A stretch of 59,809 bases of DNA from an uncultured archaeon. GTDB taxonomy: Archaea; Nanohalarchaeota; Nanosalinia; Nanosalinales; Nanosalinaceae. Position numbers and translations under genes: made by a program. Every line of letters begins with the position of its first letter. Position 1 is the first letter of the stretch. Of the stretch, positions 13,875-59,809 are shown in pieces. The stretch lies in contig CAZVPZ010000001.1 in the NCBI GenBank assembly GCA_964629245.1, positions 1 to 59,809 on the forward strand. Direction: 5' to 3'. The notes beneath the pieces were generated by a model. The model was given only the letters and a program-made list of their open reading frames with translations, was not told where the DNA came from and did no database searches.

Positions 13875-14031
13875 CGCCGGCGCCCGGATTTGAACCGGGG
13901 AGGGCCGTCACAGCCCAGCAGATATCTCGTTGTTCCAGGGCGTTTCATCATCGTGGCGTTCAGCCACTCGTGCACATCTGCTTGGCAACAGCTCGAATCT
14001 GCCGCGTTCAGCCAGACTCCGCCACGCCGGC
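13875..14031 (-). tRNA. tRNA-Ser(CGA) with a 68-nt intron at 37/38
   Basis: Hand fold: acceptor GCCGGCG/CGCCGGC, anticodon stem GCAGA/UCUGC, loop UUCGAG[intron]A. Long variable arm GGGCU..GGCCC, T arm CCCGG-UUCAAAU-CCGGG, discriminator G. Confidence 0.85.
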
Positions 14032-21437: not shown

Positions 21438-21877
21438 TCCCAGTCCCGGGAAAGGATTTCTTTTAGCTCTTTTGCCCGTCCCTTCGGTATCCGGGAGGAG
21501 ACGAGTTCGTCCTTGTAGAAGCCGCAACCTATTACGCGGTGCTGGAACCTGAGAGCGACGTATCCCTTTGTCAGCCCAGTTACTTCTATCATGTCACCGT
21601 TCAGGAGGTCTTCCAGTTCGCGGCGGTCGAGGTCCACGACGTTTTTCTCCAGCCTGTCGCCCACCAGCTGCAGACCGTAGGTGGTTGGCTTGAGCCCGAT
21701 CTTCATCTGTCTTATGAACCGGATGCCGTAGGTCTCCGCCTCCAGTTCTGTCTCCATCTCCGGTGACGTTATCCAGATGTCGCCGTTTACCTCTCTCAGG
21801 GTGAAGGCTGTCTCCTCTCTCCCGATGTCGAACCGCTCCTCCAGGTATTCCCAGGCCTCATCCACGGAACCTGGCAA
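21434..21877 (-). CDS. PUA-like RNA-binding domain protein (RsmF C-terminal-domain-like)
   Basis: GYVALRFQHRVIGCGFYKDELVSSRIPKGRAKEL resembles the C-terminal domain normally fused to NSUN/RsmF methyltransferases. Confidence 0.6.
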   Translation of the reverse strand: MPGSVDEAWEYLEERFDIGREETAFTLREVNGDIWITSPEMETELEAETYGIRFIRQMKIGLKPTTYGLQLVGDRLEKNVVDLDRRELEDLLNGDMIEVTGLTKGYVALRFQHRVIGCGFYKDELVSSRIPKGRAKELKEILSRDWD

Positions 21878-22730
21878 TGTATATCACCCCGGATTTCAGA
21901 TGGGGAGGGTAAACCCTGACGGTTTTTTCCATCTCGTCGCTGTAGCTCCTGTCCTGAAAATTTTTGACGCCTTTTTCGTGGTCAACAGGCGGCCTGAGTT
22001 CTTCAAGCTCCAGCTTGGTCTCCGCCTGGGCGTGTTCCACTACCTCCTCGTTCTCCTCTGGTGCCAGGGTGCAGGTCGAGTAGACGATGACTCCGCCGGG
22101 CTTAAGGAGCTTGGAGGCTTTCTCAACGAGCTGTTTCTGTAGCTCCGCCAGGCCCTCTATTTCGTCAATGTCGGCGGCCTCGAAGTTCCTGCGTGTCCTG
22201 TCTCCCTCGCCGCTGCAGGGAGCGTCAACAAGGATGCGATCGTACTTCTCCTCGGGTAGCTGTCGACCGTCATAGTTAGTGGCCGCGATGCATGCCGCGC
22301 CAGTCCTGTAGATATTTGAGTGAAGGCTCTTCATCCTCTTCGAGGAAGAATCGTTTGCCACCAATGTGCCCTGATTGTCTATCCGGGAAGCTATCTGTGT
22401 TGCCTTGCCTCCCGGTGCGGCGCACATGTCGAGTATCTTCTCGTTCCTGCGGGGGTTCAGGGCTTCGACCGGTAACGCGGCTGATTCCTCCTGTACGTAG
22501 TATTCTCCGCGCCAGTGCATGGTCGTCTTCCCCGGCAGTTCTTCACCGTGCAATCGATAGATATCCGGGTTCCAGTCGGACCGTTCAACTATGTTGAAAC
22601 GGTCGTCCAGCCTCGGCTCGAAGTTCACGGCAGACTTGATCCTGTTCTTCCTTATCGTGGTCCTGGGATCGCTTTCACACGCTTCCTGGAATGCTTCCCA
22701 GTCCTCGATTATCTCCCTGTAGCGTTCCAT
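21858..22730 (-). CDS. NOL1/NOP2/Sun-family RNA cytosine-C5 methyltransferase
   Basis: DMCAAPGGKATQIA (SAM binding), VDAPCSGEG and YSTCTL catalytic Cys motifs. Confidence 0.9.
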   Translation of the reverse strand: MERYREIIEDWEAFQEACESDPRTTIRKNRIKSAVNFEPRLDDRFNIVERSDWNPDIYRLHGEELPGKTTMHWRGEYYVQEESAALPVEALNPRRNEKILDMCAAPGGKATQIASRIDNQGTLVANDSSSKRMKSLHSNIYRTGAACIAATNYDGRQLPEEKYDRILVDAPCSGEGDRTRRNFEAADIDEIEGLAELQKQLVEKASKLLKPGGVIVYSTCTLAPEENEEVVEHAQAETKLELEELRPPVDHEKGVKNFQDRSYSDEMEKTVRVYPPHLKSGVIYIARFRG

Positions 22731-41975: not shown

Positions 41976-42138
41976 GGTAAGAAGCCTAAGAACGAACACC
42001 TTTTTAAACAGGCCATAGGATGTTCGCCGAGAAACGAACGAAGAAGCCCTTTAGAGCAGTTCTGGAGAGTCAAGATAAAGCCTCTTTCTGGGATAGGAAG
42101 GCGGGTTCGTATCCTACGAGCGAACCCTCATTGATAAG

Positions 42139-42342
42139 AGCCCCGAGTGGGATTTGAACCCACGACCTGCCCCTCTCTTACGCCAGAGCGGTTCGACTTG
42201 GAGGTCGCCTGCACTCCATTCTCGCTCCGCTCGAATCCGTAATCATGTTCTGAAAGCCATGCTTTGCATGGGTTGACATGATCGAACTTTGTGAAGTTCG
42301 CGATACAAGGGGGCCGCTCTAGCCAAGCTGAGCCATCGAGGC
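42139..42342 (-). tRNA. tRNA-Thr(UGU) with an intron of about 129 nt at 37/38
   Basis: GCCUCGA-UG-GCUC..GAGC-G-GCCCC-CUUGUA[intron]A-GGGGC-AGGUC-GUGGG-UUCAAAU-CCCAC-UCGGGGC-U. Confidence 0.85.
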
Positions 42343-42417: not shown

Positions 42418-43386
42418 ATGGACTGGGATTACAGGATAACCTCCGACTTCGAGGACCTGAAACAGTGGGATCTGGAGGGTGAGAGACTTGCGATGGGTTT
42501 CCGGCCGAGCGGGGAGTTGCATGTGGGAAACCTGCTCACTATCGGTTACGCCGCCGTTATATCCGACTGGCTGAAGCTGGAGCTCGATCTGAGCTGCTGC
42601 GACACTGACTGGAGCGCCCATATCCACGGCCACCACTTCCCGGAGAACAACCGCGTGATGCGCCTTTTCTTCAACCGGGCCTGCCCCTGCGGCGAGCATG
42701 AGAACATTGCAGAGCACCGCGTAGCCGAAATTCGGCCGTTCCTAGATGGTCTGGAGCAGGCGCTTGATATGGAGATAGATGTCAACTATCTCTCGGATTT
42801 CCAGGGCGACAACGGCTACGTCGACGCGCTCAGGACGGTGCTCAAGAAGATGGGGCCGCTAGACGAGGTCTTCGGAGGTGGTTTCCGGAGGCGGTACATC
42901 AGCCCCGTGGTGAACGTCTGTCTCGAGTGCGGCTACTCCCACGCCAAGGGCGCATCTTACTCTCCCGGCACTGACGAGCTTGTTTTCCCTTGCCACAACC
43001 CGGAGTGCTCCACCTACTTCGCCTCCGGCCCACTGACCGGTGAGATAGGGGTATACTACCTCGTGGACCCGGTTAGAGATGCGTGGCGTGGCGCCGCTGT
43101 CCACGTCTTCGGCGGTGATTACCGGGACGCGGAGAAGGAGATGAAGACGCCGAAGATCCAGAAGGTGGCGGAGATAACGGAACTCGCGACAGGGGGGACG
43201 CCGGCGTACTTCCTCGCGCCGCTTATAGCGGACGAAGAGGGAAAGCCGCTCAGCAAGTCGAAGGGAACTGGCAGGACTGTTGCGGACATTGACGATCTCG
43301 AGCAGTACGGCTGGGAGGTAGGGAGACAGGTCTCCGAGTGGCTGCTCGAGGAGAAGAAATACGTTTCCGAGTCGGAGCTAGTCTAG
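42418..43386 (+). CDS. Class I lysyl-tRNA synthetase-like catalytic core without an anticodon-binding domain
   Basis: HIGH variant PSGELHVGN, KMSKS variant KPLSKSKG 40 aa from the C-terminus, a Zn-type insertion CLEC...CHNPEC and FGGDYRD (compare GKDH). Confidence 0.7.
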   Translation: MDWDYRITSDFEDLKQWDLEGERLAMGFRPSGELHVGNLLTIGYAAVISDWLKLELDLSCCDTDWSAHIHGHHFPENNRVMRLFFNRACPCGEHENIAEHRVAEIRPFLDGLEQALDMEIDVNYLSDFQGDNGYVDALRTVLKKMGPLDEVFGGGFRRRYISPVVNVCLECGYSHAKGASYSPGTDELVFPCHNPECSTYFASGPLTGEIGVYYLVDPVRDAWRGAAVHVFGGDYRDAEKEMKTPKIQKVAEITELATGGTPAYFLAPLIADEEGKPLSKSKGTGRTVADIDDLEQYGWEVGRQVSEWLLEEKKYVSESELV

Positions 43387-43673
43387 AGGTCGTTGGGGTC
43401 GGGAGCCCTATCCTTTATATCTCGCTTCTTCTTGTCCTTGATCCTGTAAACGTTTACCGAGCGCTCGCACTCGTCACATTCGATCCACCACGGTCGCTGG
43501 CCGAGTTCTTCCGTTCCCTCGGTGGTCTCGCCGCAGTAGGGACAGGTCATCTGGTAGTGGTACTTCTCCATGTCGTAGGAGAACATCTTCAGGCGGCCTT
43601 CTTTCTCTCCCTCGTCGTTTTCAAGTTCCCTGTTCGTGACGTATTCCGCCCGGTCAAAGTCGATCTCTTTCAT
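43383..43673 (-). CDS. Zn-ribbon hypothetical protein
   Basis: CPYCG...CDEC. The ATG at 43673 is used because the track N-terminus overlaps the next gene. Confidence 0.55.
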   Translation of the reverse strand: MKEIDFDRAEYVTNRELENDEGEKEGRLKMFSYDMEKYHYQMTCPYCGETTEGTEELGQRPWWIECDECERSVNVYRIKDKKKRDIKDRAPDPNDL

Positions 43674-43708
43674 ACTATCATAGTTTTCAGGGGTCAGGTT
43701 TAAGTTTT

Positions 43709-44188
43709 TCAGGTCAGCATCTCGCGGTAAATCGTCTCGACTTTTTCCTCCGGTACCTCGACCTCGATTTTCGCCAGTCCTTCCGCCTCGAACGTCGCCT
43801 TTTCTATCTCCAGGAAGTCTTTTGGCGAGGAGAACTTGAGGTGTTTGATATCGGGGTTGTACTTCTTGAGCTGTCGCAGGTCCCACTCACGGGAGGTGTC
43901 GAGTATCCTGAGGTCGTAGCCCTCCACTGTCGCGAGCAGGGCGGTGACCGCATCCTTCCTGGTTTCCAGCCTGGCGTAGGCCTGCTCCTGGACAGGGTGT
44001 CCTTTGAGGCCGGGGTGTTCTTTCCCCTCGTAGCTGTAGCTCTCGATGCCGGGAACCTTTGAAAGAAGTTCCGGGTTCTCTGTCTCGACCGTTATCAGGT
44101 CTCCCTCCCTCCTGACGCTTTCCACCCTTTCCTCCAGGTTTTCCGCAAGTTTCTCCCGGTCTCCCGAGGCTTTTACCTCGACCTTCAT
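43709..44188 (-). CDS. Hypothetical protein; N-terminus weakly resembles the ThiI-type ferredoxin-like domain
   Basis: 159 aa. ...ITVETENPELLSKVPGIESYS resembles the NFLD of THUMP proteins. Weak. Confidence 0.55.
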   Translation of the reverse strand: MKVEVKASGDREKLAENLEERVESVRREGDLITVETENPELLSKVPGIESYSYEGKEHPGLKGHPVQEQAYARLETRKDAVTALLATVEGYDLRILDTSREWDLRQLKKYNPDIKHLKFSSPKDFLEIEKATFEAEGLAKIEVEVPEEKVETIYREMLT

Positions 44189-44249
44189 CCGTTGAAACCA
44201 TTGGGTGGCGAAAGCTTTTATTTCAGGTTTCTACAACCCTTTACTACAG

Positions 44250-44564
44250 ATGGCACTTTTCGACAGGGATGATGAGGACCCTGAAGAGGTCCGGATAAGA
44301 CAGCCCGAGGAAGAGGAGTCTAGTGAGGGAAAGCTGAAGCAGGAGGCAGAGGCAAGACTGACGGACAGACAGGAAGAGAAAAAGGAAAAGGAGTCGTCGA
44401 GTTCTCCGGGCATCGGGAGCTCGCTACCGGGAATGAGCTCGGGAAGTAGCGGTAGCGGCGTGGAACTTCAGGATATATATGACCAGAACGAGAAGATAAT
44501 AGGACTGCTGGAGGACATAAGGTCGGAACTTGATACCGGAGGTGGCGGAAATCAGCTATTATGA
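44250..44564 (+). CDS. Small acidic coiled-coil protein A
   Basis: Starts at ATG 44250 (MALFDRDDEDPEE). The C-terminus is LQDIYDQNEKIIGLLEDIRSEL. Confidence 0.6.
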   Translation: MALFDRDDEDPEEVRIRQPEEEESSEGKLKQEAEARLTDRQEEKKEKESSSSPGIGSSLPGMSSGSSGSGVELQDIYDQNEKIIGLLEDIRSELDTGGGGNQLL

Positions 44565-44568
44565 TAAC

Positions 44569-44886
44569 GTGAAGGATGACGTGAAGGACCAGAACACAGG
44601 TGAAAAGGCGAATTTCGATGCTCTCCGGAAGGCCGCCGAGGAATCGTCTGAGGACGACAAAGAGGGCGATGATACCGAGATAGAGGTACTTGAGGACGGT
44701 CTGAAAAGGGCGCGTGAAAAGGTCGAGGATTCCCAGCAGCCGTCACTAGGCGAGGGTCAAGAGTCCCGGCAGTCCACGGAATCGGGCGCGGCAGGTGCAG
44801 GTCCAGCTGCTCTGGAGCAGAAGCTGGACAGGATTATAGAGCAGAACGAGCGTATGATAGATATCCTTGAGAGCTTCCGGGGTTAG
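44569..44886 (+). CDS. Small acidic coiled-coil protein B (tandem paralog)
   Basis: The GTG at 44569 lies just after the upstream stop. The C-terminus is LEQKLDRIIEQNERMIDILESF. Confidence 0.55.
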   Translation: MKDDVKDQNTGEKANFDALRKAAEESSEDDKEGDDTEIEVLEDGLKRAREKVEDSQQPSLGEGQESRQSTESGAAGAGPAALEQKLDRIIEQNERMIDILESFRG

Positions 44887-44914
44887 CTCTTCCACTGTTT
44901 TGTTCTGAGCGTTT

Positions 44915-45190
44915 CTAGACCACTTCGACAGCTATCTTTCTCCTTCCCTCGTCGGTGGTCTCCATCTCTTCCTTCAGCTTGATTTCCAGCTTCAGCTGCT
45001 TGGAGGTGTTGCCCTCGAAGAACTCGAGTTCGACCGTGTTGTCCCTCGTTGGTTCGATTTCCACTTCTTCGCGGCCCTTGAAGCTGAGGCCTACGTCTCC
45101 CTCCCGTATCTTCTCCGAGAAGCTTTGAAGGAAGTTTGCCAGTTCCTCGTTCGAGAATTCAAAGTCGAGATCAACTTCTTCCGTTGCCAT
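44915..45190 (-). CDS. amphi-Trp-domain-like small protein
   Basis: 91 aa with an ...EELANFLQSFSEKIREG... pattern, then an alternating beta segment. Confidence 0.55.
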   Translation of the reverse strand: MATEEVDLDFEFSNEELANFLQSFSEKIREGDVGLSFKGREEVEIEPTRDNTVELEFFEGNTSKQLKLEIKLKEEMETTDEGRRKIAVEVV

Positions 45191-45224
45191 TGTTTAATGG
45201 TTGGTCTGAAATGTTTTATTTGTT

Positions 45225-45509
45225 TTATTCCTCGTCACCGGACTCCTCTTCCTCTTCCCGCTCTTTTTCGAGCTTCATGGAGATGAAGTGATCCTTCTCC
45301 TCAAGTTCCCTGATGGATTCGATGGCGAAGAAGTAGGCTGTCGCCACCATTATCATGCCAAGGAATCCCGGGCTGAGGTCGACCATGTCGACGAGGGGCA
45401 GAAGGGTTGAAAGCACAAGAAAGAGGCCCAGAACCAGTAGCGTGAATGATACCGCGACCTCTTGTTCGACTGTAAGCTTCTTGAATCCGAACCTGTCTTT
45501 TTCTGCCAT
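45225..45509 (-). CDS. Small 2-TM membrane protein with acidic tail
   Basis: Two hydrophobic helices and a C-terminal EEEEESGDEE. Confidence 0.6.
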   Translation of the reverse strand: MAEKDRFGFKKLTVEQEVAVSFTLLVLGLFLVLSTLLPLVDMVDLSPGFLGMIMVATAYFFAIESIRELEEKDHFISMKLEKEREEEEESGDEE

Positions 45510-45510
45510 C

Positions 45511-45885
45511 TTAATCGAGCTCCTTTGGGTCTAGCTGGGCGGTTTCAGGGTTGAAGGCGGATGGGAGGTGTATGTGGTAGGTTCCCTCCCGCTTCTGTAT
45601 CACGAGCGGTATCTCCTTCAGCAGTCTCGAGACGTTTATGTTGTAGACGCCTTCTTCCTGCACCCTTATAGAGTCTAAATCGAACTCGAATTTAATGTTT
45701 TCCCTTTCATCCACGCCTTCTACTATCATCTCTTCCATCTTCGAGGTGACTTCTTCCTGCTCCTCTTCCGTCATCTCGTCGTCCTTCTCGTACATGAAGA
45801 GTGAGGAGCCGCACTCACAGCCCTCGATGAGTTCCTCTGAGTCGTCTTCGTAGACCTTTCCGCAGTTCATACACCTGTGTGGCAT
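45511..45885 (-). CDS. Zn-ribbon protein of the GTPase/DUF2073 operon
   Basis: MPHRCMNCGKVYEDDSEELIEGCECGS. Confidence 0.7.
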   Translation of the reverse strand: MPHRCMNCGKVYEDDSEELIEGCECGSSLFMYEKDDEMTEEEQEEVTSKMEEMIVEGVDERENIKFEFDLDSIRVQEEGVYNINVSRLLKEIPLVIQKREGTYHIHLPSAFNPETAQLDPKELD

Positions 45886-45892
45886 AGCTGAA

Positions 45893-46291
45893 TCACTTCT
45901 TTTTCCCGTTGTCTTCTTCCAGTTTTGCGAGGAACGATACAGAGTCGCGCTCCTCCTTTATCTTCTCCATCACCCGTGAGTTGCCGACTATAGTCAGACC
46001 GCGCCTATACTGTTCGTTGAGGAACTTGTTGTAGAGGAAGCTCTTCGCCTTCTGGAAACGCGTGGAACCAGCGTCGAAACCCATGAACTCCACTCCTGGG
46101 AAGTCCTCGTCGACCTCATCAACAGCTGTCTCGATGAGTTCGCGCTTCTCCTCCGGGGTCCAGGCTTCCTCGAGCACTAGAACGGCGTTGTCCTTCACCT
46201 TTTCCAGCACGAGGTCGAGTTTATCCGCGAACTCGTTTTCAGCCAGCTTTTCCCTGGAAAGAAACTCTATAGTGACCCCGTCATCTGTCAT
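45893..46291 (-). CDS. DUF2073-like protein
   Basis: 132 aa, abutting the GTPase stop with a 0-nt gap. The family assignment is from memory. Confidence 0.6.
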   Translation of the reverse strand: MTDDGVTIEFLSREKLAENEFADKLDLVLEKVKDNAVLVLEEAWTPEEKRELIETAVDEVDEDFPGVEFMGFDAGSTRFQKAKSFLYNKFLNEQYRRGLTIVGNSRVMEKIKEERDSVSFLAKLEEDNGKKK

Positions 46292-46927
46292 CTAGGTTAA
46301 CCTTGCGACTATTTCCTCATAAAGTTTGTCAATGTTTTCACCCTCTTTCGCACTGATCTCGATAACAGGGTGCTGAGGGAAGGCGTCCCGAACTCTCGAG
46401 GGATCGGAGTCTTCGAGGTCTATCTTGTTCGCCACGACGAGGATAGGGATATCCTTGGCCTCCAGGTTGCCGATTATGGTGACGTTTACCTGAGTGTACG
46501 GATCTTCCGTCGAGTCGAAGATAACAAGGCAGGCATCGACATCGTCAAGATACTTGATAGCCTCCACTATACCCTTCGTGGCCTCTTTCGCTCTTCCCTT
46601 GGCGTCCTCTTCCTCGAGCCCGTGCTCTGTGAAGTCCTTGAAGTCGACGTTTGTAGAAATCCCTGGCATGTCGAGGAGGTTGAGTTCAAGTTCCTTGCCG
46701 TTCGCGTCCAGAGTGACGCGCTCCTTCTTCTCGACCATCCGGGTCTCGTGCGGTATCTCGGATACTTCGCTCATCTCATCTCCTGTAAGGTCCAGTGCTA
46801 TCTGGTTCGCAAGCGTTGATTTACCCGCGTTTGGAGGCCCGTAAATCCCTATGCTTTTGCTTCCCGTTTCTGAACTACCGAAGAGGTCGCTGAAGAGTTT
46901 CTTCAACCTGCCTATCAATTTTGACAC
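46292..46927 (-). CDS. Small Era/Arf-like GTPase
   Basis: G1 GPPNAGKST, G3 DMPG, G4 NKID. GTG start. Confidence 0.85.
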   Translation of the reverse strand: MSKLIGRLKKLFSDLFGSSETGSKSIGIYGPPNAGKSTLANQIALDLTGDEMSEVSEIPHETRMVEKKERVTLDANGKELELNLLDMPGISTNVDFKDFTEHGLEEEDAKGRAKEATKGIVEAIKYLDDVDACLVIFDSTEDPYTQVNVTIIGNLEAKDIPILVVANKIDLEDSDPSRVRDAFPQHPVIEISAKEGENIDKLYEEIVARLT

Positions 46928-47014
46928 CAGTCAATAATAAAAGCGGCTCACAGATATAAAAACCATTTCCCGGGATGGAACAGAATTAAAGCCTCGGGGT
47001 GGCCAACGCTAAAC

Positions 47015-47449
47015 ATGAAGACGGAAAAAGGGGTTATAGCGGTAGTCTACAAGGAGTCAGGTCTCAGCAATCGCTACCTGGTTCTACACCGGATAAAGAA
47101 CTGGGAGGGGTGGGAACTTCTGAAAGGCCATCTGGAGGACGGGAATTATGAGGAGACCGTCCGCATAGAGCTGGAGGAGGAAGCTGGCATCTCCCCGGGT
47201 GATATAGAGGATATAGAAGAGATGGGTGAAGAGGTCAGCTGGGAGTACGAGCGCGACGGTGAGGAGCGAAGTAAGCAGTACAGGGCCTACCGGGTGAAGG
47301 TTGGTAGCGATGTGACCGCAGATGTCTCCGATAACCCGCATGATGAACACGACCAGGCTTTTTTCCTCGGATTCAAGGACGCGAGAACACTTCTCCACTA
47401 CGACGACAACGTCGAGCTGCTTGAGGAAGCGGAGTCCCGCACCGGATGA
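47015..47449 (+). CDS. NUDIX hydrolase
   Basis: GHLEDGNYEETVRIELEEEAGI. Confidence 0.85.
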   Translation: MKTEKGVIAVVYKESGLSNRYLVLHRIKNWEGWELLKGHLEDGNYEETVRIELEEEAGISPGDIEDIEEMGEEVSWEYERDGEERSKQYRAYRVKVGSDVTADVSDNPHDEHDQAFFLGFKDARTLLHYDDNVELLEEAESRTG

Positions 47450-47486
47450 ACCGATTTAAAACTTGGAGGATATTTTGGTTCGTAGG

Positions 47487-47738
47487 ATGACAGAACCAGA
47501 ACAGATGCTGGAACTTTACCAGTTCGAGGGCTGTCCCTTCTGCTCGAAAGTTCGCCAGAAACTGACTGACCTGGAGATAGATTTCATCGCCCGCCAGGTA
47601 GGGCCGAAGGGCCACCGTGAACGCGTCGAGGGGGTATCTGGCCAGACGGGTGTACCGGTCCTTGTGGATCCCAATACAGACATCGTGATGCCGGAGAGCG
47701 ACGACATCGTCGAATACCTGGAAGAGCAGTACGGCTAG
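47487..47738 (+). CDS. Glutaredoxin / GST-N-terminal-like protein
   Basis: LELYQFEGCPFCSKVRQKL and GVPVLVD. The ATG at 47487 follows an AGGA. Confidence 0.8.
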   Translation: MTEPEQMLELYQFEGCPFCSKVRQKLTDLEIDFIARQVGPKGHRERVEGVSGQTGVPVLVDPNTDIVMPESDDIVEYLEEQYG

Positions 47739-48064
47739 AGGTTACCCGAAAGATAGTGGTAGAGTTCTTCCTCAGTATATTTTTCTTCGAGAGGGCCCTG
47801 CTCAAGTCTGCCATCCGCGTTCAGAAATAGACTCATTCCCCAACTGGCGTTTGCTTCCTCTCCCCCGATATCATAGTATTCTACCAATGCCTCAATGAAA
47901 TCTTGGCTGGCTGACACGCGATTGCCCTTCCTTCCATTGGGTAAATTAGCGGCCTTATAGAAATCTTCGTAAGCCTCATAAACCTCCTTAAAATCTTCAT
48001 CAGGGCTGCTACACCACGGCCATTCGATATCAGGTAACCATGTGTTCAGCCTCATGATTAACAA
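47735..48064 (-). CDS. Hypothetical protein on lower-GC DNA next to tRNA-Ile
   Basis: 109 aa with no recognised motif. Sampled lines gave 35-52% GC. Confidence 0.5.
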   Translation of the reverse strand: MLIMRLNTWLPDIEWPWCSSPDEDFKEVYEAYEDFYKAANLPNGRKGNRVSASQDFIEALVEYYDIGGEEANASWGMSLFLNADGRLEQGPLEEKYTEEELYHYLSGNL

Positions 48065-48149
48065 GAAACAGGAGAACTTTTTTAGTTTAATTAGTTATTT
48101 GTCGATAACAACGTGAGCCTGGTTTGTCAGCAGGATAGGAAATAGGCGA

Positions 48150-48299
48150 TGGACCGGCCCGGATTTGAACCGGGGATCTCCACGTATCCAAGTTCGGGGG
48201 ACTGATTTCCGGAAGCCATGCATACCATGGCTTGACGCGTGCTAACTCCGCGTCAGGAGTTATCAGCGTGGCGCTCTAACCTGGCTAAGCTACCGGTCC
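48150..48299 (-). tRNA. tRNA-Ile(GAU) with a 75-nt intron at 37/38
   Basis: GGACCGG-UA-GCUU..GAGC-G-CCACG-CUGAUA[intron]A-CGUGG-AGAUC-CCCGG-UUCAAAU-CCGGG-CCGGUCC-A. Confidence 0.85.
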
Positions 48300-48405
48300 C
48301 AGTTTTGAACGGGGCGCTGGCACGTAACCCAGTTTGGGGGTGAAAGTATTTTTAATCCCTCTGTCTCCGATTTCTTTTTCAACGACCTCAACGGAACATC
48401 TCTTT

Positions 48406-48891
48406 ATGGGAATAACTGGGGAGCACCGCGAGGACGTTGAAGAGGTCCAGGAATCCCTTGAGAGGAAGGTCATGGGTGAGAGCTTCCTTGACGTGAAGAG
48501 CGCCCTGGACAATGTACTGCCTTTCATGCTGCTTTTGCTCGGGTTCATAATACTGTTCAACTTCCTCCTCCCGGTAACACCCAGGATGGAGCAGTGGATA
48601 GTCTACGGCAACTGGGTTGTCCTGATTTACTTCGCTATCCGGGTCGGGGTCGAGTTCAAGCTCGCGAGTTCGGACCGCGAGTTCGTGCGCCAGCACTGGC
48701 TCGACCTGCTGATGCTGGTACCTGTCTTCTCCCTCTTCCGCGAGGTCAGGATGGCCCGGGCGCTCGAACAGGTTGGGCTTCTTTCAGCATCAGAGGACAT
48801 CATGACGGGTTCTGCTACTTTCCGCAGTACTGGTCTGGCGGCCAGGCTCACCAAGATATCCCGGATGATAAAGAGGAGTGTCGGGTTCTGA
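48406..48891 (+). CDS. Voltage-sensor-domain-like membrane protein lacking a pore domain
   Basis: Three hydrophobic helices, HWLDLLMLVPVF (S3-like), then a basic periodic segment RSTGLAARLTKISRMIKR. The ORF ends there. Confidence 0.5.
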   Translation: MGITGEHREDVEEVQESLERKVMGESFLDVKSALDNVLPFMLLLLGFIILFNFLLPVTPRMEQWIVYGNWVVLIYFAIRVGVEFKLASSDREFVRQHWLDLLMLVPVFSLFREVRMARALEQVGLLSASEDIMTGSATFRSTGLAARLTKISRMIKRSVGF

Positions 48892-48950
48892 TCGGAGCTA
48901 ATTGCTGGAAGCAGGAACTGGATTTTCTGGGGATTAAACTGGTAGCAGTT

Positions 48951-49024
48951 TGGGCCCGACGGGATTTGAACCCGCGACTCTCGGCTTAAAAGGCCGATGC
49001 TCTGCCAGACTGAGCTACGGGCCC
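48951..49024 (-). tRNA. tRNA-Lys(UUU)
   Basis: GGGCCCG-UA-GCUC..GAGC-A-UCGGC-CUUUUAA-GCCGA-GAGUC-GCGGG-UUCAAAU-CCCGU-CGGGCCC-A. Confidence 0.92.
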
Positions 49025-49097
49025 CGGTCTCGATGTGATATAATAGTCGAGTTTAGAAGTTAGGCTTATCAAACTGTCAGCGAGGTTGAGTTTCGAA

Positions 49098-49649
49098 TTA
49101 GTGTTCTTTCTCGCGATAAGTCCACGATCCAGCTTCATCCCTCATCTCGTAGATCAGCCCTATTTCCTGTCCAATAGTAACTAGCCAGCGGTAATCACTT
49201 CCTTCTTCCTGCCAGCCATCGACGAAATCGAATCCAGATTCTTGCAGAGCTTCCCTGTGCTCTTGGATGTATCTATCGTTCTTGAGGACCAGCTGTCCTC
49301 CGACCTGATCTTGGTTTATATCGTGGTAAACCTCTTCCATCTCAGGCACGGGAGGATTCGCTCCTTCCGGTATCTCCAGGACCACAGGGATGCCGTATTC
49401 CCGGGTCAGTTTATCGATTTTTTCGTCCCTGGCAGCCACCGCCCCAAAGATAGCTCTTCCCAGCAAATCGTAATTCCCGACAGAAACCAGCTGTGATTCT
49501 GGATTAGCTTCTATTTCGGTCCGCAATCTCTCGGCTGCCTTCTCCCGGGTCAATTTCTGGGAATTATCTATATGTGGTGATTCTTCCAGCTCTTCATCTG
49601 TGACATCGCCGCTTGCAACACTTTTCAGAAGCTGATCAACATCTTCCAC
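49098..49649 (-). CDS. Hypothetical acidic protein
   Basis: 183 aa with no motif recognised. Confidence 0.55.
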   Translation of the reverse strand: MEDVDQLLKSVASGDVTDEELEESPHIDNSQKLTREKAAERLRTEIEANPESQLVSVGNYDLLGRAIFGAVAARDEKIDKLTREYGIPVVLEIPEGANPPVPEMEEVYHDINQDQVGGQLVLKNDRYIQEHREALQESGFDFVDGWQEEGSDYRWLVTIGQEIGLIYEMRDEAGSWTYREKEH

Positions 49650-49674
49650 GAGACCTGTAGGGATTCAAAAATAT

Positions 49675-49836
49675 TTATTCCTTCCGGGGCTTGGCCGTGT
49701 TGAAATCGTTCCGTTTCGAGGTCTTGCCGAAACCGCAGGAGGCACATACCTTCTTCCTCAGGTGGAAGGCTTTCTTGCCGCATCTCCTGCACTTGCCGTG
49801 GGTCTTCTTGTTCCTTTTCCCCTTGTTGAGCCCCAT
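49675..49836 (-). CDS. rpl37e: Ribosomal protein L37e
   Basis: Not in the track (53 aa). [53 protein letters not shown]. It lies downstream of LSm, as in many archaea. Confidence 0.9.
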
Positions 49837-49873
49837 GTTCTGTCACCTGCGTTCGCGGTCCTGATAAACTGGT

Positions 49874-50107
49874 CTACTCCGGGCTTACCACTATGACGTT
49901 GTCCCCTCGGACAAGAAGCTTGCCGTAGTCGGTCATACTGTCGTCGTTCTTCACCGAGGCGTCTTCCAGCCACATGTTGAGGTGGAGGTCGAAAGCCTTG
50001 AGCCTACCTGTAACCGTAGAACCGTTTTTGAGTTTGGCGATCACTCGATCTTCCTTTGCTTTATCCAGTACGTCTAGTGGTCTTTTGCCTTGAGAGTCGT
50101 CTCCCAT
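49874..50107 (-). CDS. Sm-like archaeal protein (LSm/SmAP)
   Basis: Sm1 (VIAKLKNGSTVTGRLKAFDLHLNMWL) and Sm2 (LLVRGDNVIVV). Confidence 0.9.
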   Translation of the reverse strand: MGDDSQGKRPLDVLDKAKEDRVIAKLKNGSTVTGRLKAFDLHLNMWLEDASVKNDDSMTDYGKLLVRGDNVIVVSPE

Positions 50108-50247
50108 AATTCAGGACACCTGTATCCCTGCAATGCAGGTACAAGATATTTAAACCTACTGAGTTTCCGCTTTGCAGCGGTCTCATAGCCACTTCTAGGA
50201 ACCGGCGCGGCAACCATATTTAAAAGTTCGACTCCGGTTGAAACTGT

Positions 50248-50625
50248 ATGGCAGTCTGGCACGAAAGGTCGCTCAGGAAGAAGACCGGTGGAAGGACGCG
50301 GCCCTACCGGAAGTCCAGGAAATACGATCTCGGTTCGAAGTTCTCCGAGACCGAGGTGGGAGAACACCGGATTGAGAATAGACGTACCCGGGGTGGCAAC
50401 CAGAAGAATGTCGTGAAGAGAGCGGAAGAAGTCAACCTCTCGGTAAACGGCGATGTCAAGAGGACAGAGATAGAGTCGGTGGAAGACAACCCGGCTAATC
50501 CCAACTACATCCGCCGGTCGCTCCTAACCAGGGGGGCGGTCATATCCACTCCTGAGGGAGAGGCTGTGATAACCTCGCGGCCCGGTCAGGACGGCGTTGT
50601 CAACGCGAAGCTAGTGGACAAATAG
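50248..50625 (+). CDS. rps8e: Ribosomal protein S8e
   Basis: MAVWHERSLRKKTGGR...; 125 aa. TATA ATATTTAAAAG lies about 21 nt upstream of the ATG. Confidence 0.9.
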   Translation: MAVWHERSLRKKTGGRTRPYRKSRKYDLGSKFSETEVGEHRIENRRTRGGNQKNVVKRAEEVNLSVNGDVKRTEIESVEDNPANPNYIRRSLLTRGAVISTPEGEAVITSRPGQDGVVNAKLVDK

Positions 50626-50655
50626 GTTTTTACTTCTGGAGCACAAAAACCCTTT

Positions 50656-51102
50656 ATGGTCTACGAGAACCCCGAAAAAGATGCGCTGTACACTATCTTC
50701 GACGGCGACGTGGCTGAACTAGCGGACCGCCTCACCTCTTTCTGTAACAGCATCTACGGCGAGAAGTGCGAGTTCTACACGGTTTCAATCGAGAGGAACA
50801 GGGATGGCGGGTCCTGGAAACTCCACGAATTCCCGAATTTCGATGGGAGAGCTGTAAAAGCCATCAAGAACCATCTCAGCGCGAGGAGGGACCAGGTCAG
50901 GGTGCAGCTGGGTGGCGAGGATGAAGATTACCGGCTGGAGTTCCTAGTCTGCCCTGCACGGAACACAGAAAGCCTTGCAAGGTACGTTGAGAGGGAACAC
51001 CAGGAAGAGTTCGACCAAGACGCGCTCGTGGTGCTGGCAGTCCTAAGGTCGGGAGAGGGTTTCGAGGAACAGAGAGAGTTCATGGAGAATATAGAGAAAT
51101 AA
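50656..51102 (+). CDS. Hypothetical protein
   Basis: 148 aa with no motif recognised. Confidence 0.55.
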   Translation: MVYENPEKDALYTIFDGDVAELADRLTSFCNSIYGEKCEFYTVSIERNRDGGSWKLHEFPNFDGRAVKAIKNHLSARRDQVRVQLGGEDEDYRLEFLVCPARNTESLARYVEREHQEEFDQDALVVLAVLRSGEGFEEQREFMENIEK

Positions 51103-51119
51103 AAAGGGGGAAACGCCGA

Positions 51120-51245
51120 TCACTCCACGAGCCGCCTGAAAGCGCTCAAGAACGCTCGTGAAACTCTAAACGGCAGAAAAGAACGCCTTGGCTCGAACTC
51201 CACTGGGATCTGGTGGCCAGCGTCGTCCGCAAAGTCGGTGTCCAT
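51120..51245 (-). CDS. Possible 41-aa ORF
   Basis: MDTDFADDAGHQIPVEFEPRRSFLPFRVSRAFLSAFRRLVE, preceded by AGGGGAG. It competes with the origin interpretation. Confidence 0.2.
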   Translation of the reverse strand: MDTDFADDAGHQIPVEFEPRRSFLPFRVSRAFLSAFRRLVE

Positions 51246-51399
51246 CAAGTAACACTCCCCTTAGGAAATCTTTTATACCCCTTCATTTAAACGTCTGTTG
51301 ATTTGGCGTAGAACAGCCATAGCCGTGCTCTCAGGGTTCTTTTCGGCAACGGATGCCTCTTGCAGAGCCTGTCTCTCCCGCCACGGAAGCAGGTGGAGT
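51122..51399. other. Candidate replication-origin-like region next to orc1/cdc6
   Basis: ACTCCAC heptamer at 51122 and 51197 (plus strand) and inverted at 51393-51399. The 51197 copy reads CTCCACTGGGA, which is ORB-core-like. An AT-rich stretch (about 51255-51300) lies between the opposed copies. Confidence 0.3.
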
Positions 51400-51428
51400 T
51401 TTCCCTCGTACCTGTCAATCATCGACAT
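51273..51428 (-). CDS. Possible 51-aa ORF (leaderless-type promoter spacing)
   Basis: MSMIDRYEGKLHLLPWRERQALQEASVAEKNPESTAMAVLRQINRRLNEGV. TTTATAAA lies 23 nt upstream of the ATG. Confidence 0.3.
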   Translation of the reverse strand: MSMIDRYEGKLHLLPWRERQALQEASVAEKNPESTAMAVLRQINRRLNEGV

Positions 51429-51493
51429 GTCGATTAGTTGTCGGAGCCCGGTTTATAAACAATCGAAGACCCTTCCGGTAGTTCCGCGAATCC

Positions 51494-52513
51494 TCAGTCC
51501 TGGAGGCTGTACTTCCTCCAGCGGCCCTTTCCCTCGGCTTCGATCAGCCGGTAGTGGTCCATCTTCTGGAGGTACTTCCTCAGTGTGCGCTCCACCTTCG
51601 GCTCGTCAACTCTTTCCCTGTACTTCTCGTAGAGTTCGCCAGGTTTCACCTTTTCCTCCTCCCTTATGATGTCGTATAGGGCCTTCTGGTGTGGGTTCAG
51701 CTTGTCAACCGACTTCGACTTGTCCTCTTCCTCGGCCTCTGGAAGCGCATCCTCGACCACCTCCTGCGTTATATTCTCCATCTCCTGCCCTTCCGCCTCT
51801 TCCGCGGCTATCCTCAGTGCGTTCAGTGCAACCCTCGCATCACCTTCCGCCCTGTTGGCGATACGGTGGAGGAGGGAGGTCTCGACAGCCTCCTTCCTGA
51901 GACCCCATTCCCGCCGGTCCTCCAGGATGTCGACCAGTTCTTCCCTTGAGTATGCGGGGAAATGTATCTCCCTTGTTCCCTGTAGCGACGAGCGTATCCG
52001 ATCGTCAACGTCGTAGAGAGCGGTCTCCTTGTTCGCTATCATTATCAGTGCTGCCTGTTCCTCCCTGGCGAAGTCGTAAAGGATGCGTTCCTCCTCTATC
52101 TGGTCGACTTCGTCGAGTATGATTATGCTCGGCCGTTTCGATATCTTTTCCCGGAACTTGTCCACCAGCTCGTCTGTCGGAGTCCCGGTCCGGTGTATAA
52201 GGTTGACGCCGAGGTCTCGCAGCAGGTTGTAGTAGACCTTGAACCTGGAGGGATAACGCCAGCAGTTCACGCGACCAGAAACCACCTCGGAGGAGTAGCG
52301 CTGGAGTTCATCGACCACGTACTGTGCCATCGTGGTCTTCCCGGTCCCGGGAGGTCCGTACAAAAGCATGTTCCGGGGCGAGTCGTCCTCCAGCAGCGGC
52401 TCGAGGTTTCGCTTTATCTCCTGTATCTGGGAGTCCCTGTGGACCATCCGCTTCGGCAGGAAGCCTTCCCGGAGTACCCGGGCGTCCTCTATTATAGTGT
52501 TGCGCTTTCTCAC
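51494..52513 (-). CDS. cdc6: Orc1/Cdc6 replication initiator
   Basis: Walker A GPPGTGKT, Walker B IIILDEVD and a C-terminal winged helix. Confidence 0.95.
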   Translation of the reverse strand: MRKRNTIIEDARVLREGFLPKRMVHRDSQIQEIKRNLEPLLEDDSPRNMLLYGPPGTGKTTMAQYVVDELQRYSSEVVSGRVNCWRYPSRFKVYYNLLRDLGVNLIHRTGTPTDELVDKFREKISKRPSIIILDEVDQIEEERILYDFAREEQAALIMIANKETALYDVDDRIRSSLQGTREIHFPAYSREELVDILEDRREWGLRKEAVETSLLHRIANRAEGDARVALNALRIAAEEAEGQEMENITQEVVEDALPEAEEEDKSKSVDKLNPHQKALYDIIREEEKVKPGELYEKYRERVDEPKVERTLRKYLQKMDHYRLIEAEGKGRWRKYSLQD

Positions 52514-52992: not shown

Positions 52993-54078
52993 CTAGATGT
53001 GGCGCAGGTTGAGTTCAAGGACGTCCTCGTCCATCAGTTCGTGACCCTTCCCGACTTCCTGCCGAGGGAAAGCCGCGCTATCTCCTGTCACGCGGGCGGC
53101 CTTGAACCGGTCCTTCATATCGCCCGGCAGGTCGTCCAACGCGTCTTCCACCGTCGCACCCTCCCGCAGTATGAGTGGTTCGTCCTTGTCTGCCTCTTCT
53201 CCCTTCTCCTTCAGGTATACCCTTATGAGTCCCATCCTTTCGAAGATGAGTTCCCGGAGTTCGTCCAGGTTCTCACCGGTTTCGGCGGAGACAACCATGT
53301 CGTACTCCTGCTCAAGTTTTTCACGCCTTTCGTCATCGACGAGGTCGGCCTTGTTCACGATAATTATCCCCGGGACGTACTTCCGGTTGTCCATGAGCGC
53401 GTCGATGAACCTGTCGAGACCGACTTCCTCGCGTATAACCACGTCGGCGTTCACGTAACCGTTCTCCTGCATCAGCGCCTCTATAGTTGACTCGTCGATT
53501 TCAAGGTCGACTGTGGTGGAAACGCTGATGCCTCCCCGACCTTTCTTCTCTATCTTGACATCGGGCCGCTCTTGGTTGATGCGGATGCCCGAGTCGTAGA
53601 GCTCGTCCATTATCTTGCTGTACCGCATCTCTTCAGAGTCGAGAACCACCAGCACGAGATCCGCATTCCTGACAACGCTCAGGACCTGTTTACCGTCGCC
53701 CCTTCCCTCTGCCGCACCTCCTATCAGGCCGGGGACGTCAAGTATCTGAATGTTAGCGCCCCTGTACTGCATCATCCCGGGCTCGACATCGAGTGTCGTG
53801 AACTCGTACTCTCCCACCTCGCTTTCAGCGTTCGTCAGCGCGTTCAGGAGTGTTGACTTCCCTACAGAGGGGAACCCTACGAGTGCGACTGTGGCGTCTC
53901 CGTGCTTCTTGACCGCGTAGCCGGAGGTGTCTCCTGTACCCTTCGCTTTCTTCTCCTTCTCGTCATTCAGCTTGGATATCTGGGACTTCAGTCTGGCGCG
54001 CTCCTTCTCGGTCGCCTTGTTCACCGGCGTCTTCTCAAGCTTCTCCTCCAGTTCGGCTATACGGTCTTCGATGCCCAT
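52993..54078 (-). CDS. DRG/Rbg1-type OBG-family GTPase with a TGS domain
   Basis: VALVGFPSVGKSTLLN, DVPGLI, NKADL and a C-terminal TGS-like segment. Confidence 0.9.
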   Translation of the reverse strand: MGIEDRIAELEEKLEKTPVNKATEKERARLKSQISKLNDEKEKKAKGTGDTSGYAVKKHGDATVALVGFPSVGKSTLLNALTNAESEVGEYEFTTLDVEPGMMQYRGANIQILDVPGLIGGAAEGRGDGKQVLSVVRNADLVLVVLDSEEMRYSKIMDELYDSGIRINQERPDVKIEKKGRGGISVSTTVDLEIDESTIEALMQENGYVNADVVIREEVGLDRFIDALMDNRKYVPGIIIVNKADLVDDERREKLEQEYDMVVSAETGENLDELRELIFERMGLIRVYLKEKGEEADKDEPLILREGATVEDALDDLPGDMKDRFKAARVTGDSAAFPRQEVGKGHELMDEDVLELNLRHI

Positions 54079-54546: not shown

Positions 54547-55443
54547 ATGAAACTGCCCTGGAAGAGTGGTGAGGAAGAACTCCGCGAGAGGATAGAGGAA
54601 CTCGAGGAGGAGAAGCAAGAACTCGAGCAGAGGTACGAGGCCGAGAGCAAGAGGCGCTCTGATCTGGCCCGGAAGAAACAGGAGGCCGAGGAGGAGCTGA
54701 ACCGGCTGAGGGACCGGCTCAGGTCTGAAAAGCAGGAGAACGAGGAGGAAGGCGAGCAGGTCGGTGACTCCTCCGAATCGGTGTCCTTTGACCGAGGCTA
54801 CCGCATCCTCCAGAAACTCTCTTCGGTGGAATCGCCGGAGAGGGACATGGTGACGGTATATTCCCCCGGCAAGGTCTCGAAGATAGACGACTTCCAGGGC
54901 CTGAAGAACGCGGTCTCTGCATCCAACATGGAGTTCCTGTCGGGCAAGGAATCCTTCATCGGCTTCCTGGACGAGGATTTCTTCTCTGCAGCGCTCAAGA
55001 CTAGACCGTTCTTCCAGCCGGGATGGTATCTCGCGACTTCCTTCGACCTGAAAGATGCGCTTGACTTCATAGAGGCGGAGAAGACCTGGGCGCTGGTTTC
55101 CGCTGGCGAGACCCGGATATACAGGGAAGCAGCGGGCGAGACCGAACAAGTCGAACGCTTAAAGTCCCGCGTCGACAGCAGGCAGTCGAAAGGAGGTTTC
55201 TCGCAGGACCGTTTTGAGAGGAAGCGGGAGGAGCAGATCGATGAGCATCTTGACGAGGTGGAGGGAGAACTGGGGAATTACGAAGATGTCTATCTCCTCG
55301 GTGAAAGGGCGCTGTGCAAGAAGCTTTCCGGTGAACACCTCGGCGGTTTCGACCCCAACCGGAAGCTCAGGGATGCGCTTTATAACTTTTCGGTGACACA
55401 AAATCCTAGAGATGAGAACGGTAACGTGGGAACAGGCGGCTGA
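54547..55443 (+). CDS. aeRF1-superfamily, Vms1/VLRF1-like putative peptidyl-tRNA hydrolase with an N-terminal coiled coil
   Basis: RQSKGGFSQDRFERKREEQ aligns to the GGQ-loop region of eRF1/Vms1-type domains. Confidence 0.6.
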   Translation: MKLPWKSGEEELRERIEELEEEKQELEQRYEAESKRRSDLARKKQEAEEELNRLRDRLRSEKQENEEEGEQVGDSSESVSFDRGYRILQKLSSVESPERDMVTVYSPGKVSKIDDFQGLKNAVSASNMEFLSGKESFIGFLDEDFFSAALKTRPFFQPGWYLATSFDLKDALDFIEAEKTWALVSAGETRIYREAAGETEQVERLKSRVDSRQSKGGFSQDRFERKREEQIDEHLDEVEGELGNYEDVYLLGERALCKKLSGEHLGGFDPNRKLRDALYNFSVTQNPRDENGNVGTGG

Positions 55444-58960: not shown

Positions 58961-59809
58961 CTATACCTGCTGGATGTGGCCGCTCTGGGGCTCCCATAGC
59001 TCGCCCTCTCTCCGTAGTCGATCTATTATCTCCTCGGCCTTGTCGCGAGAGATGCCCTGCTCCTCCGCGGTCTGGAGGACCTCCTGTATCTCTACCGGCT
59101 GGTCGTCGCCTCCGTGGCTCCTGATTATCTTCTTAATGCTCTGCAACCTGTTGCGCTGCGAGGAGGACACTCCTGATTCAATCATGTCGATGTCGTAGTC
59201 TCCGGTTTCTGGATCCACGCCTACCTGTTTCAGGCAGTAGGTGAGTATGTCGATGGCGCGCTGTGCGTCCTTCTCCCTGACCTCGTCCTGGAGGTGTGCA
59301 CGTGCAGATGCCTCCGCGACCCGGACGAGAGCCTCGAGCTGTCTCGCGGTTATCGGGACGCTCTGTCCTGCCTCGTCGCTCCCGCTCGAACGCATCCCGA
59401 CATAGAACTCCTGGATGCGGTCGGCCGCTTTCTGGGTTAGCTGGGGCTGGACGTTCTTCTTGGCGTAGGCGATGTATTTGCGGAGTACGTCCTGGCTGAG
59501 CTCTCCCTTGGTCTCCTCAGGGTTTATGTGGTTCTTCAGCACCTGTTCGGAGAGACGCTGGTCCTTCTCCTCGTCCGGCTCGTCCTTCACCGGGAAGATA
59601 AAATCGAAACGGGAGAGCAGCGTGTCGCCTATGTTTATCTGCTGCGGGATGGGCTCGTACGGGTCGAACCTCCCGAGCTTGGGATTGCCCGCGGCGAGTA
59701 TCGCTGTCTGGGCGTTAAGCGTGGCCTGGATGTTTGCCTTCGACACGGAAATCTGCTGCTGTTCCATCGCCTCGTGCAGTGAGGAGCGGTCCTCCTTGCT
59801 CATCTTGTC
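58961..59809 (-). CDS. mcm: MCM helicase, C-terminal part (N-terminus beyond the right edge)
   Basis: DKMSKEDRSSLHEAMEQQQISVSKANIQATLNAQTAILAAGNP (sensor/arginine-finger region) and a C-terminal wH. The frame is open to base 59809. Confidence 0.9.
   Translation of the reverse strand, partial: DKMSKEDRSSLHEAMEQQQISVSKANIQATLNAQTAILAAGNPKLGRFDPYEPIPQQINIGDTLLSRFDFIFPVKDEPDEEKDQRLSEQVLKNHINPEETKGELSQDVLRKYIAYAKKNVQPQLTQKAADRIQEFYVGMRSSGSDEAGQSVPITARQLEALVRVAEASARAHLQDEVREKDAQRAIDILTYCLKQVGVDPETGDYDIDMIESGVSSSQRNRLQSIKKIIRSHGGDDQPVEIQEVLQTAEEQGISRDKAEEIIDRLRREGELWEPQSGHIQQV

Follow-up and report, generated by a model that had tools for sequence, protein, structure and literature searches.

What does a gene encode that resembles class I lysyl-tRNA synthetase (LysRS-I) and ends shortly after its catalytic domain? 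This question is raised by an ATG-started open reading frame (ORF) of 322 aa at 42418..43386 (+) in contig CAZVPZ010000001.1 of an uncultured nanohaloarchaeon. The window analyzed here is the whole stretch of 59,809 nucleotides, which has a G+C content of ~55% and encodes acidic proteins. A sequence-only reading had described the ORF as a truncated LysRS-I-like core without anticodon-binding domain, and had proposed that it is either a paralog with a new function or half of a LysRS gene that was split in two. By sequence profile and fold, the ORF is a LysRS-I-derived catalytic core, and the short family to which it belongs is DPANN-wide and not organism-specific. Judging from the sequence data, the protein is likely not a housekeeping LysRS but a neofunctionalised paralog. 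It is reasonably probable that this DPANN-wide family of stand-alone LysRS-I catalytic paralogs consists of active ATP-dependent ligases, whose acceptor, likely RNA, would be recognized independently of an anticodon.

Sequence profile and predicted fold

In Pfam, the protein matched PF01921 (class I LysRS) with 37.7 bits against a cutoff of 27 (E 1.5e-9, profile positions 21-296 of 360). With 28.8 bits, the IleRS of the same window (1004-4033, - strand) also exceeded the gathering score of this family, which is 27 bits, owing to its KMSKS region. The PF01921 match alone was therefore no proof of LysRS ancestry, and independent evidence was sought. When the family profile was aligned with a profile of canonical LysRS-I, hhalign returned a probability of 99.5% and an E-value of 2.7e-23. 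This alignment spanned canonical residues ~7-305 only, ending at residue ~305 of the 523 in 1IRX, which is reported as the only class I LysRS structure. An AlphaFold2 (AF2) model of the window protein, built on 39 orthologues (predicted local distance difference test, pLDDT, 88; predicted TM-score, pTM, 0.88), showed a Rossmann fold. Its best PDB match in Foldseek was 1irx_A (E 9.6e-12, TM-score 0.67 on the query), followed by GluRS, CysRS, GluQRS and TyrRS at 1e-7 to 1e-5, and the best 50 structural matches were class I enzymes throughout. The model of a distant family member, P0121 (28% identical to the window protein), also had 1IRX as its best match (E 9.5e-12), and for both models GluRS, CysRS and TyrRS were weaker by 3-4 orders of magnitude, and the GluRS and GluQRS structures taken together by 3-5. 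Single-sequence and profile searches of PDB sequences gave generic class I signals only (E 0.1-1). Pfam, AF2/Foldseek and hhalign thus agree on a truncated class I LysRS-like core without anticodon-binding domain.

The landmarks named in the sequence-only reading were found in order, and in hhalign each pairs with a canonical element: PSGELHVGN (aa 30-38) with PSGYVHVGN (30-38) of 1IRX, CPCGEHENIAEH in the AEH segment with canonical PWGCHESYAEH, the Cys-rich insertion with the canonical knuckle, FGGDY (231-235) with canonical AGKDH (236-240), and PLSKS (277-281) with KMSGS (279-283) of 1IRX. Both ATP-binding motifs of class I aminoacyl-tRNA synthetases (aaRS), HIGH-type and KMSKS-type, are present at the expected places. 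The protein stops 41 aa past PLSKS, and ~200 aa of C-terminal domains are absent, in line with the ~40 aa and the missing ~200-aa region originally noted. The parts of the protein are as follows.

42418..43386, + strand: stand-alone class I LysRS-like catalytic (Rossmann) domain without anticodon-binding domain, 322 aa (Pfam, AF2 model, Foldseek, hhalign)
42496..42531, + strand: G27-F-R29-P-S-G-E-L-H35-V-G37-N38, the HIGH-type signature for ATP binding; H35 occurs in 100% of the family, and R29 stands for canonical Ser/Thr
42538..42540, + strand: T41, opposite canonical Glu41 (Glu in 100% of canonical LysRS-I and 0% of the short family)
42598..42618, + strand: C61-D-T-D-W-S-A67 block, aligned to the canonical WDDYD region; invariant in Nanohaloarchaea, with D62/D64 near-invariant family-wide
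42919..43008, + strand: four-Cys knuckle C168/C171/C192/C197, counterpart of the Cys/His (Zn) knuckle insertion of canonical LysRS-I; 94-100% conserved
43054..43080, + strand: Y213-Y-L-V-D-P-V-R-D221, remodelled counterpart of W218-R-V-D-W222-P-M-R-W226; D221 (100%) is at the position of W226 (100%)
43099..43122, + strand: V-H229-V-F-G-G-D234-Y235, counterpart of F-E234-P-A-G-K238-D239-H240; H229 and Y235 are family-specific, and D234 is common with the canonical enzyme
43246..43260, + strand: P277-L-S-K280-S, the KMSKS-type loop; K280 is 100% conserved, and non-halophilic members have KMSKS
43261..43383, + strand: 41-aa C-terminal tail with a helix (294-311) and a short strand; beyond its end, the canonical enzyme has a further ~200 aa of tRNA-binding domains

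Canonical LysRS-I (LysK, 1IRX, TIGR00467, subclass Id) and the window protein have the same Rossmann fold (Foldseek E ~1e-11, TM-score on the query 0.64-0.67) and a shared order of landmarks (PSGxxHxGN, AEH segment, Cys/His knuckle, xGxD[HY], KMSKS-type loop), and their residue numbers nearly coincide for the initial 40 and the final 60 residues of this domain. However, the short family is ~200 aa shorter, with no domains past the catalytic core, and the identity to 1IRX is 15-18%. Against the NCBIfam equivalogs, the window protein scored 15.9 bits for TIGR00467 (cutoff 147.55) and 19.2 bits for NF001968 (cutoff 648), roughly one-tenth or less of the cutoffs; for comparison, the true LysRS-I P0218 scored 445 bits. 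What the protein has in common with LysK (TIGR00467/K04566) is the catalytic Rossmann domain homologous to PF01921/1IRX, whereas the equivalog score, the C-terminal domains and the pocket residues place it outside LysK.

Conservation of the remodelled pocket

We compared 119 canonical LysRS-I sequences and 1IRX with 181 members of the short family (118 nanohaloarchaeal and 63 distant); the canonical set used for the conservation statistics came from a search with P0218, which returned Methanomassiliicoccales enzymes only. Nine residues that are 100% conserved in the 119 canonical enzymes are all replaced in the 181 short members, and a further replacement is found at position 29.

Canonical E41: T or S at 41 in the short family
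Canonical W218: Y or F at 214
Canonical W222: deleted
Canonical W226: D221 (100%)
Canonical E234: H229 (97-100%)
Canonical K238: G233
Canonical H240: Y235 (94-100%)
Canonical Y268: G or A at 267
Canonical E269: P268
Canonical Ser/Thr29: R or K at 29

The replacement residues are mostly conserved inside the short family (T/S41, D221, H229, Y235, G/A267-P268 and R/K29), and H35, D221, G232, D234 and K280 are 100% conserved in both the nanohaloarchaeal and the distant members. Retained from the canonical enzyme are G27, P30-S31-G32, H35, G37 (97-100%), K280 and the four-Cys knuckle, as well as D234 and R220, which correspond to canonical D239 and K/R225. As read from the alignment, this pattern points to an active enzyme with a rebuilt specificity pocket, which has since been kept under purifying selection. 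We take E41 and Y268 of LysRS-I to bind the epsilon-amine of lysine, and W218 and H240 to sandwich its side chain, although the contrast in conservation between the canonical enzymes and the short family holds irrespective of these roles.

It is very improbable that the protein is a catalytically dead pseudo-synthetase with a structural or regulatory role. Nanohaloarchaea do have Pro for the first Lys of KMSKS (PLSKS), and Asn38 of the HxGN motif varies between N, T and S among distant members. However, canonical LysRS-I also varies here (KMSGS in 1IRX, QMHKS in Methanomassiliicoccales), and H35, G37 and K280, along with the full pocket set, are 100% conserved or nearly so over a divergence to roughly 25% identity.

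Distribution of the short family and other LysRS genes

A search of 5.8 billion proteins yielded 158 relatives of the window protein. The best 120 of these 158 were 270-345 aa long (nearly all 300-345) and 56-79% identical, and among all 158 each one with an organism name was nanohaloarchaeal. Four closed genomes of ~1 Mb were represented, those of Nanohalovita haloferacivicina, Nanosalina VS9-1, Nanohalococcus occultus and Nanohalobium constans. When 1.84 billion representatives at 50% identity were searched exhaustively with HMMER, 107 clusters were detected, mostly of 300-390 aa. The nanohaloarchaeal clade formed one representative in this search, and ~100 further clusters followed at E 1e-48 to 1e-3. 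LysRS-I of canonical length (495 and 527 aa, one enzyme from Berkelbacteria and one from an archaeon) did not appear before E-values of 1e-5 to 3e-4. Distant members are not acidic and mostly have H[LIV]GN and a literal KMSKS. When GTDB species-representative genomes were scanned with a tight alignment (A5), matches were found in Woesearchaeota, Pacearchaeota, 'Nanoarchaeia', Aenigmatarchaeota and Candidatus Asbonarchaeum, and at least seven loci with the short family were detected in a metagenome scan. The short length is conserved family-wide and is thus an old trait of the paralog family, and not a truncation or an assembly artefact.

A few metagenome-assembled genomes (MAGs) with the short family were labelled Methanosarcinales or Campylobacterales. 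One of these contigs, L015 ('Campylobacterales bacterium'), agrees in the order and sizes of its genes with an Aenigmatarchaeota contig (L014) and is therefore probably mis-binned. Several contigs of third-party annotation (TPA) MAGs (L005/L012 and the L019-L021 group) were labelled 'uncultured Methanosarcinales'; the genes of L005/L012 (aIF5B, ribosomal protein L37ae, prefoldin) look small-genome archaeal, and these labels may be unreliable.

In databases, the short proteins are entered as 'lysyl-tRNA synthetase class I' by JGI and UniRef and as 'hypothetical protein' by PGAP. The former label, which JGI/KEGG-style pipelines give to many members, would fit a minimal genuine LysRS that acts alone or in trans with a tRNA-binding protein, or half of a split LysRS, and a tRNA-Lys(UUU) gene is located 5.5 kb away. 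We nevertheless regard such an enzyme as quite improbable: PGAP calls the short proteins hypothetical, the scores of 16-19 bits compare with equivalog cutoffs of 148-648, and the nine canonical pocket residues are replaced. No match to the LysRS-I C-terminal domains (of 1IRX and P0218) was found by tblastn in the 59.8-kb window or in 26 related loci. The next gene downstream runs towards the studied gene and overlaps its stop codon. No canonical LysRS was found in the window.

The aaRS genes of 20 nanohaloarchaeal genomes have been tabulated (Table S4 of PMC9765267), in a curated subset that does not include msrA, trxB or glutaredoxin and whose missing GlyRS, Gat or DHS rows allow no conclusion. 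Class II LysRS (K04567) is listed in 7 of the 20 genomes and K04566 in 14; K04566 occurs without the class II enzyme in 12, which would be consistent with a short protein that serves as the LysRS. However, the closed genome of Nanohalobium constans (LC1Nh) has both K04567 (_00537) and K04566 (_00523), and NHA24 and Nha-CHl carry two separate K04566 loci each (PMC9765267). A class II LysRS near the short gene had been suspected because the K04566 and K04567 genes of Table S4 sit 11-15 genes apart. Motif scans, Pfam and tblastn detected no class II LysRS in the window or in loci L001 and L003, and the class II enzyme encoded on L009 proved to be AspRS rather than LysRS; the tabulated LC1Nh K04566 gene should therefore be different from the short paralog. 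The same follows from its position, as _00523 is four genes from a ProRS-like gene (_00519; PMC9765267), whereas no ProRS was found in the 21-kb L003 locus (within 10 kb) around the LC1Nh short paralog. With no C-terminal fragment in the 27 loci and other LysRS genes listed in Table S4, the proposal of a split LysRS is unlikely to hold.

HOEBDJDB_00374 and EBDHIBHA_00094 (NHA24, Nha-CHl) carry K04566, MetRS and PheRS-beta annotations together (PMC9765267). The annotations suggest a canonical nanohaloarchaeal LysRS-I with a fused OB-fold (B2/EMAP-type) tRNA-binding domain; OB-fold tRNA-binding fusions were reported for some LysRS of the candidate phyla radiation (CPR; PMC5370408).

Genomic context and possible function

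The window, Nanohalovita and Nanohalobium share synteny on the downstream side of the short gene. A convergent ~100-aa Zn-ribbon protein comes first, then a 159-aa protein, two acidic proteins of ~120 aa, an Amphi-Trp protein and a 90-aa protein, and the order continues with OapC, OapB, an OapA-like GTPase, NUDIX and glutaredoxin. In the window, five small acidic ORFs separate the studied gene from OapC; they encode the ~100-aa Zn-ribbon protein and proteins of 159, 119, 118 and 94 aa without a Pfam family, and the Amphi-Trp protein (91 aa) is encoded among them. Orc1/Cdc6 and MCM are located further downstream, and the block is origin-proximal and mostly on the opposite strand. Upstream, a tRNA-Thr gene with an intron (window), an 85-aa ORF (Nanohalovita) or a divergent kinase (Nanohalobium) was found; with this variable upstream side, the nanohaloarchaeal short gene looks monocistronic. 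Other features of the window are listed below; tRNA genes were detected by ARAGORN with introns allowed.

5928-7067, + strand: ThiI (THUMP + PP-loop)
13875-14031, - strand: tRNA-Ser(CGA) with a 68-nt intron
15456-16430, + strand: TtuA-like 2-thiouridine synthetase
21858-22730, - strand: RsmB/F-type m5C methyltransferase
42138-42342, - strand: tRNA-Thr(UGU) with a 129-nt intron, directly upstream of the studied gene
43383-52513, mostly other strand: origin-proximal block (synteny, Pfam)
45511-45885: OapC
45893-46291: OapB
46292-46927: OapA-like GTPase
48150-48299, - strand: tRNA-Ile(GAU) with a 75-nt intron
51494-52513: Orc1/Cdc6
52993-54078, - strand: DRG-type GTPase (MMR_HSR1 + TGS), ~10 kb downstream
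54547-55443, + strand: VLRF1/eRF1-like release-factor-family protein, ~10 kb downstream
58961-59803: MCM

The three tRNA introns are at the canonical anticodon-loop position, and default ARAGORN and Rfam missed these genes. In the unrelated locus L005, too, a DRG GTPase and an eRF1 are found a few kb away from the short gene, and this may be a remnant of an old gene order. In addition, Ser/Thr-type or RIO/Bud32-type kinases adjoin the short paralog or lie within two genes of it in four loci from three distant lineages:

L003, 9022-9933, - strand: kinase
L004, 1237-1809, - strand: kinase
L005, 11016-11957, + strand: kinase
L006, 5624-6568, + strand: kinase

The kinases of L003 and L005 showed no mutual tblastn match at E <= 1e-4.

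Outside Nanohaloarchaea, the order GatD, one further gene, short gene, GatE and AspRS was found in four Woesearchaeota and Pacearchaeota loci (L007, L008, L009 and L025), with GatB and ProRS nearby; the four short proteins are 42-55% identical. It is conceivable that the protein is a dedicated or accessory charging enzyme of the indirect Gln/Asn pathway that acts, in a transamidosome-like complex, on tRNA-Gln, tRNA-Asn or tRNA-Asp held by GatDE, GatCAB or AspRS, and the conserved basic R/K29 could then bind a side-chain carboxylate. We consider this improbable, as the association occurs in one sublineage only and is absent from the nanohaloarchaeal loci and at least 12 other loci, the fold is nearer to LysRS-I than to GluRS, and each of the 20 tabulated nanohaloarchaeal genomes has an annotated canonical GluRS (PMC9765267). 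In L005, L010 and the very distant L019, the short gene is flanked by genes for aIF5B and a PUA-domain protein. The context leans to tRNA and translation, but it is not decisive.

For the stand-alone, anticodon-independent ligase favored here, the following course of the reaction may be proposed. The enzyme would form an acyl- or aminoacyl-adenylate with ATP and pass the acyl group to an acceptor that is recognized without reading of an anticodon. This acceptor would most likely be RNA, that is, a tRNA or a modified nucleoside within a tRNA, in analogy to GluQRS/YadB, which glutamylates queuosine in tRNA-Asp. Because the acidic residues D62/D64, candidates for binding of the alpha-amine, are conserved, an amino acid is the probable substrate for activation, though not necessarily lysine. 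As a speculation, D221, D234 and Y235 might accommodate a cationic side chain, and R/K29 might bind a carboxylate or a phosphate.

The acceptor might also be something other than RNA. A tRNA-independent ligase, which joins an amino acid or carboxylate to a small molecule, a lipid or a protein as MshC or PoxA/EpmA do, would agree with the loss of all tRNA-body and anticodon-binding domains, with the thoroughly changed pocket and with the lack of a universal tRNA-related operon partner, and paralogs of aaRS with such activities have been catalogued (PMC9437257). This alternative seems unlikely to us, although less so than the others weighed above. DPANN archaea hold very few biosynthetic pathways for such a ligase, the conserved contexts contain tRNA-charging or translation genes, and the knuckle insertion has been kept under strong conservation; in LysRS-I, the knuckle presumably sits in the acceptor-side insertion.

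Several points weigh against an anticodon-independent ligase acting on RNA. The presence of a canonical LysRS in this organism is predicted from KEGG orthology (KO) annotations of related genomes, the pocket geometry was deduced from the alignment alone, and the lysine-contact roles of the canonical residues are assumed, what was measured here being the conservation pattern. In most loci the neighbors are heterogeneous (integrase, enolase, PAC2, carbamoyltransferase, PRPP synthetase), the nanohaloarchaeal gene appears monocistronic with a variable upstream side, and the link to GatDE is restricted to one sublineage. Finally, small DPANN genomes are rich in translation genes, so that a tRNA or translation context is weak evidence. 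The sequence-only reading had pointed to distribution and neighborhood as informative; the former proved DPANN-wide, with short proteins throughout, and the latter heterogeneous in most loci. Its view of the protein as a likely neofunctionalised paralog is supported by the equivalog scores, the systematically remodelled pocket and the conserved short length.

Truncated aaRS paralogs have precedents, and YadB, PoxA, HisZ, AsnA and MshC each revealed unexpected biochemistry. GluQRS/YadB (4A91) has the same design, a class I core of ~300 aa without anticodon-binding domain in which HIGH and KMSKS are kept, and it matched the window protein structurally (E about 2e-6). However, GluQRS is derived from GluRS and bacterial, whereas the short family is derived from LysRS-I and archaeal (DPANN), and with 13 bits against a cutoff of 276.7 for TIGR03838 the window protein is not a member of GluQRS/YadB. 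Among truncated LysRS paralogs, only PoxA/EpmA (GenX), which ligates beta-lysine to EF-P, is well known, a core without anticodon-binding domain that uses a non-tRNA acceptor; it is a bacterial class II protein (antiparallel beta-sheet) and is structurally unrelated to the class I window protein. In MshC (Cys:GlcN-Ins ligase), a CysRS-like class I domain is reused for ATP-dependent ligation to a non-tRNA acceptor. Its parent synthetase is different, it is actinobacterial and has a defined pathway, whereas no comparable pathway context was found here, and CysRS structures were weaker fold matches for the window protein.

A class I LysRS counterpart of YadB or PoxA was not known to the sequence-only reading, and the literature agrees. 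A 2022 review of aaRS paralogs (PMC9437257) lists class II LysRS derivatives only (LysU, PoxA and LysX), and in AARS Online (2024, PMC11580382) LysRS-I stands as a subclass of its own that comprises a single family. No description of the short family was found in full-text literature on LysRS together with Nanohaloarchaea or DPANN, or on PF01921. Thus, while truncated aaRS-core paralogs as such are known, one derived from class I LysRS is apparently undescribed, and the present family appears to be the first found.

Class I LysRS has been the one synthetase lineage without a catalogued derivative. Nanohaloarchaea conserve the short family strictly, and it is also widespread among other DPANN lineages; since the ~1-Mb genomes of these organisms retain little more than information processing, its retention suggests an important function. 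Labels of the type 'lysyl-tRNA synthetase class I' may mask a real absence of LysRS or lead to miscounted aaRS complements when the metabolism of DPANN genomes is reconstructed. The cultivated members Nanohalobium constans and Nanohalovita haloferacivicina make the question directly testable. In a more far-reaching and less probable reading, the family might be an ancient class Id-like enzyme which, throughout DPANN, aminoacylates an RNA or a protein that takes part in translation, in a new ATP-dependent reaction, for example a tRNA nucleoside modification like glutamyl-queuosine or a charging step with GatDE/AspRS. If true, class I LysRS would have its first functional derivative, and the reaction would represent a new pathway specific to archaea with reduced genomes.

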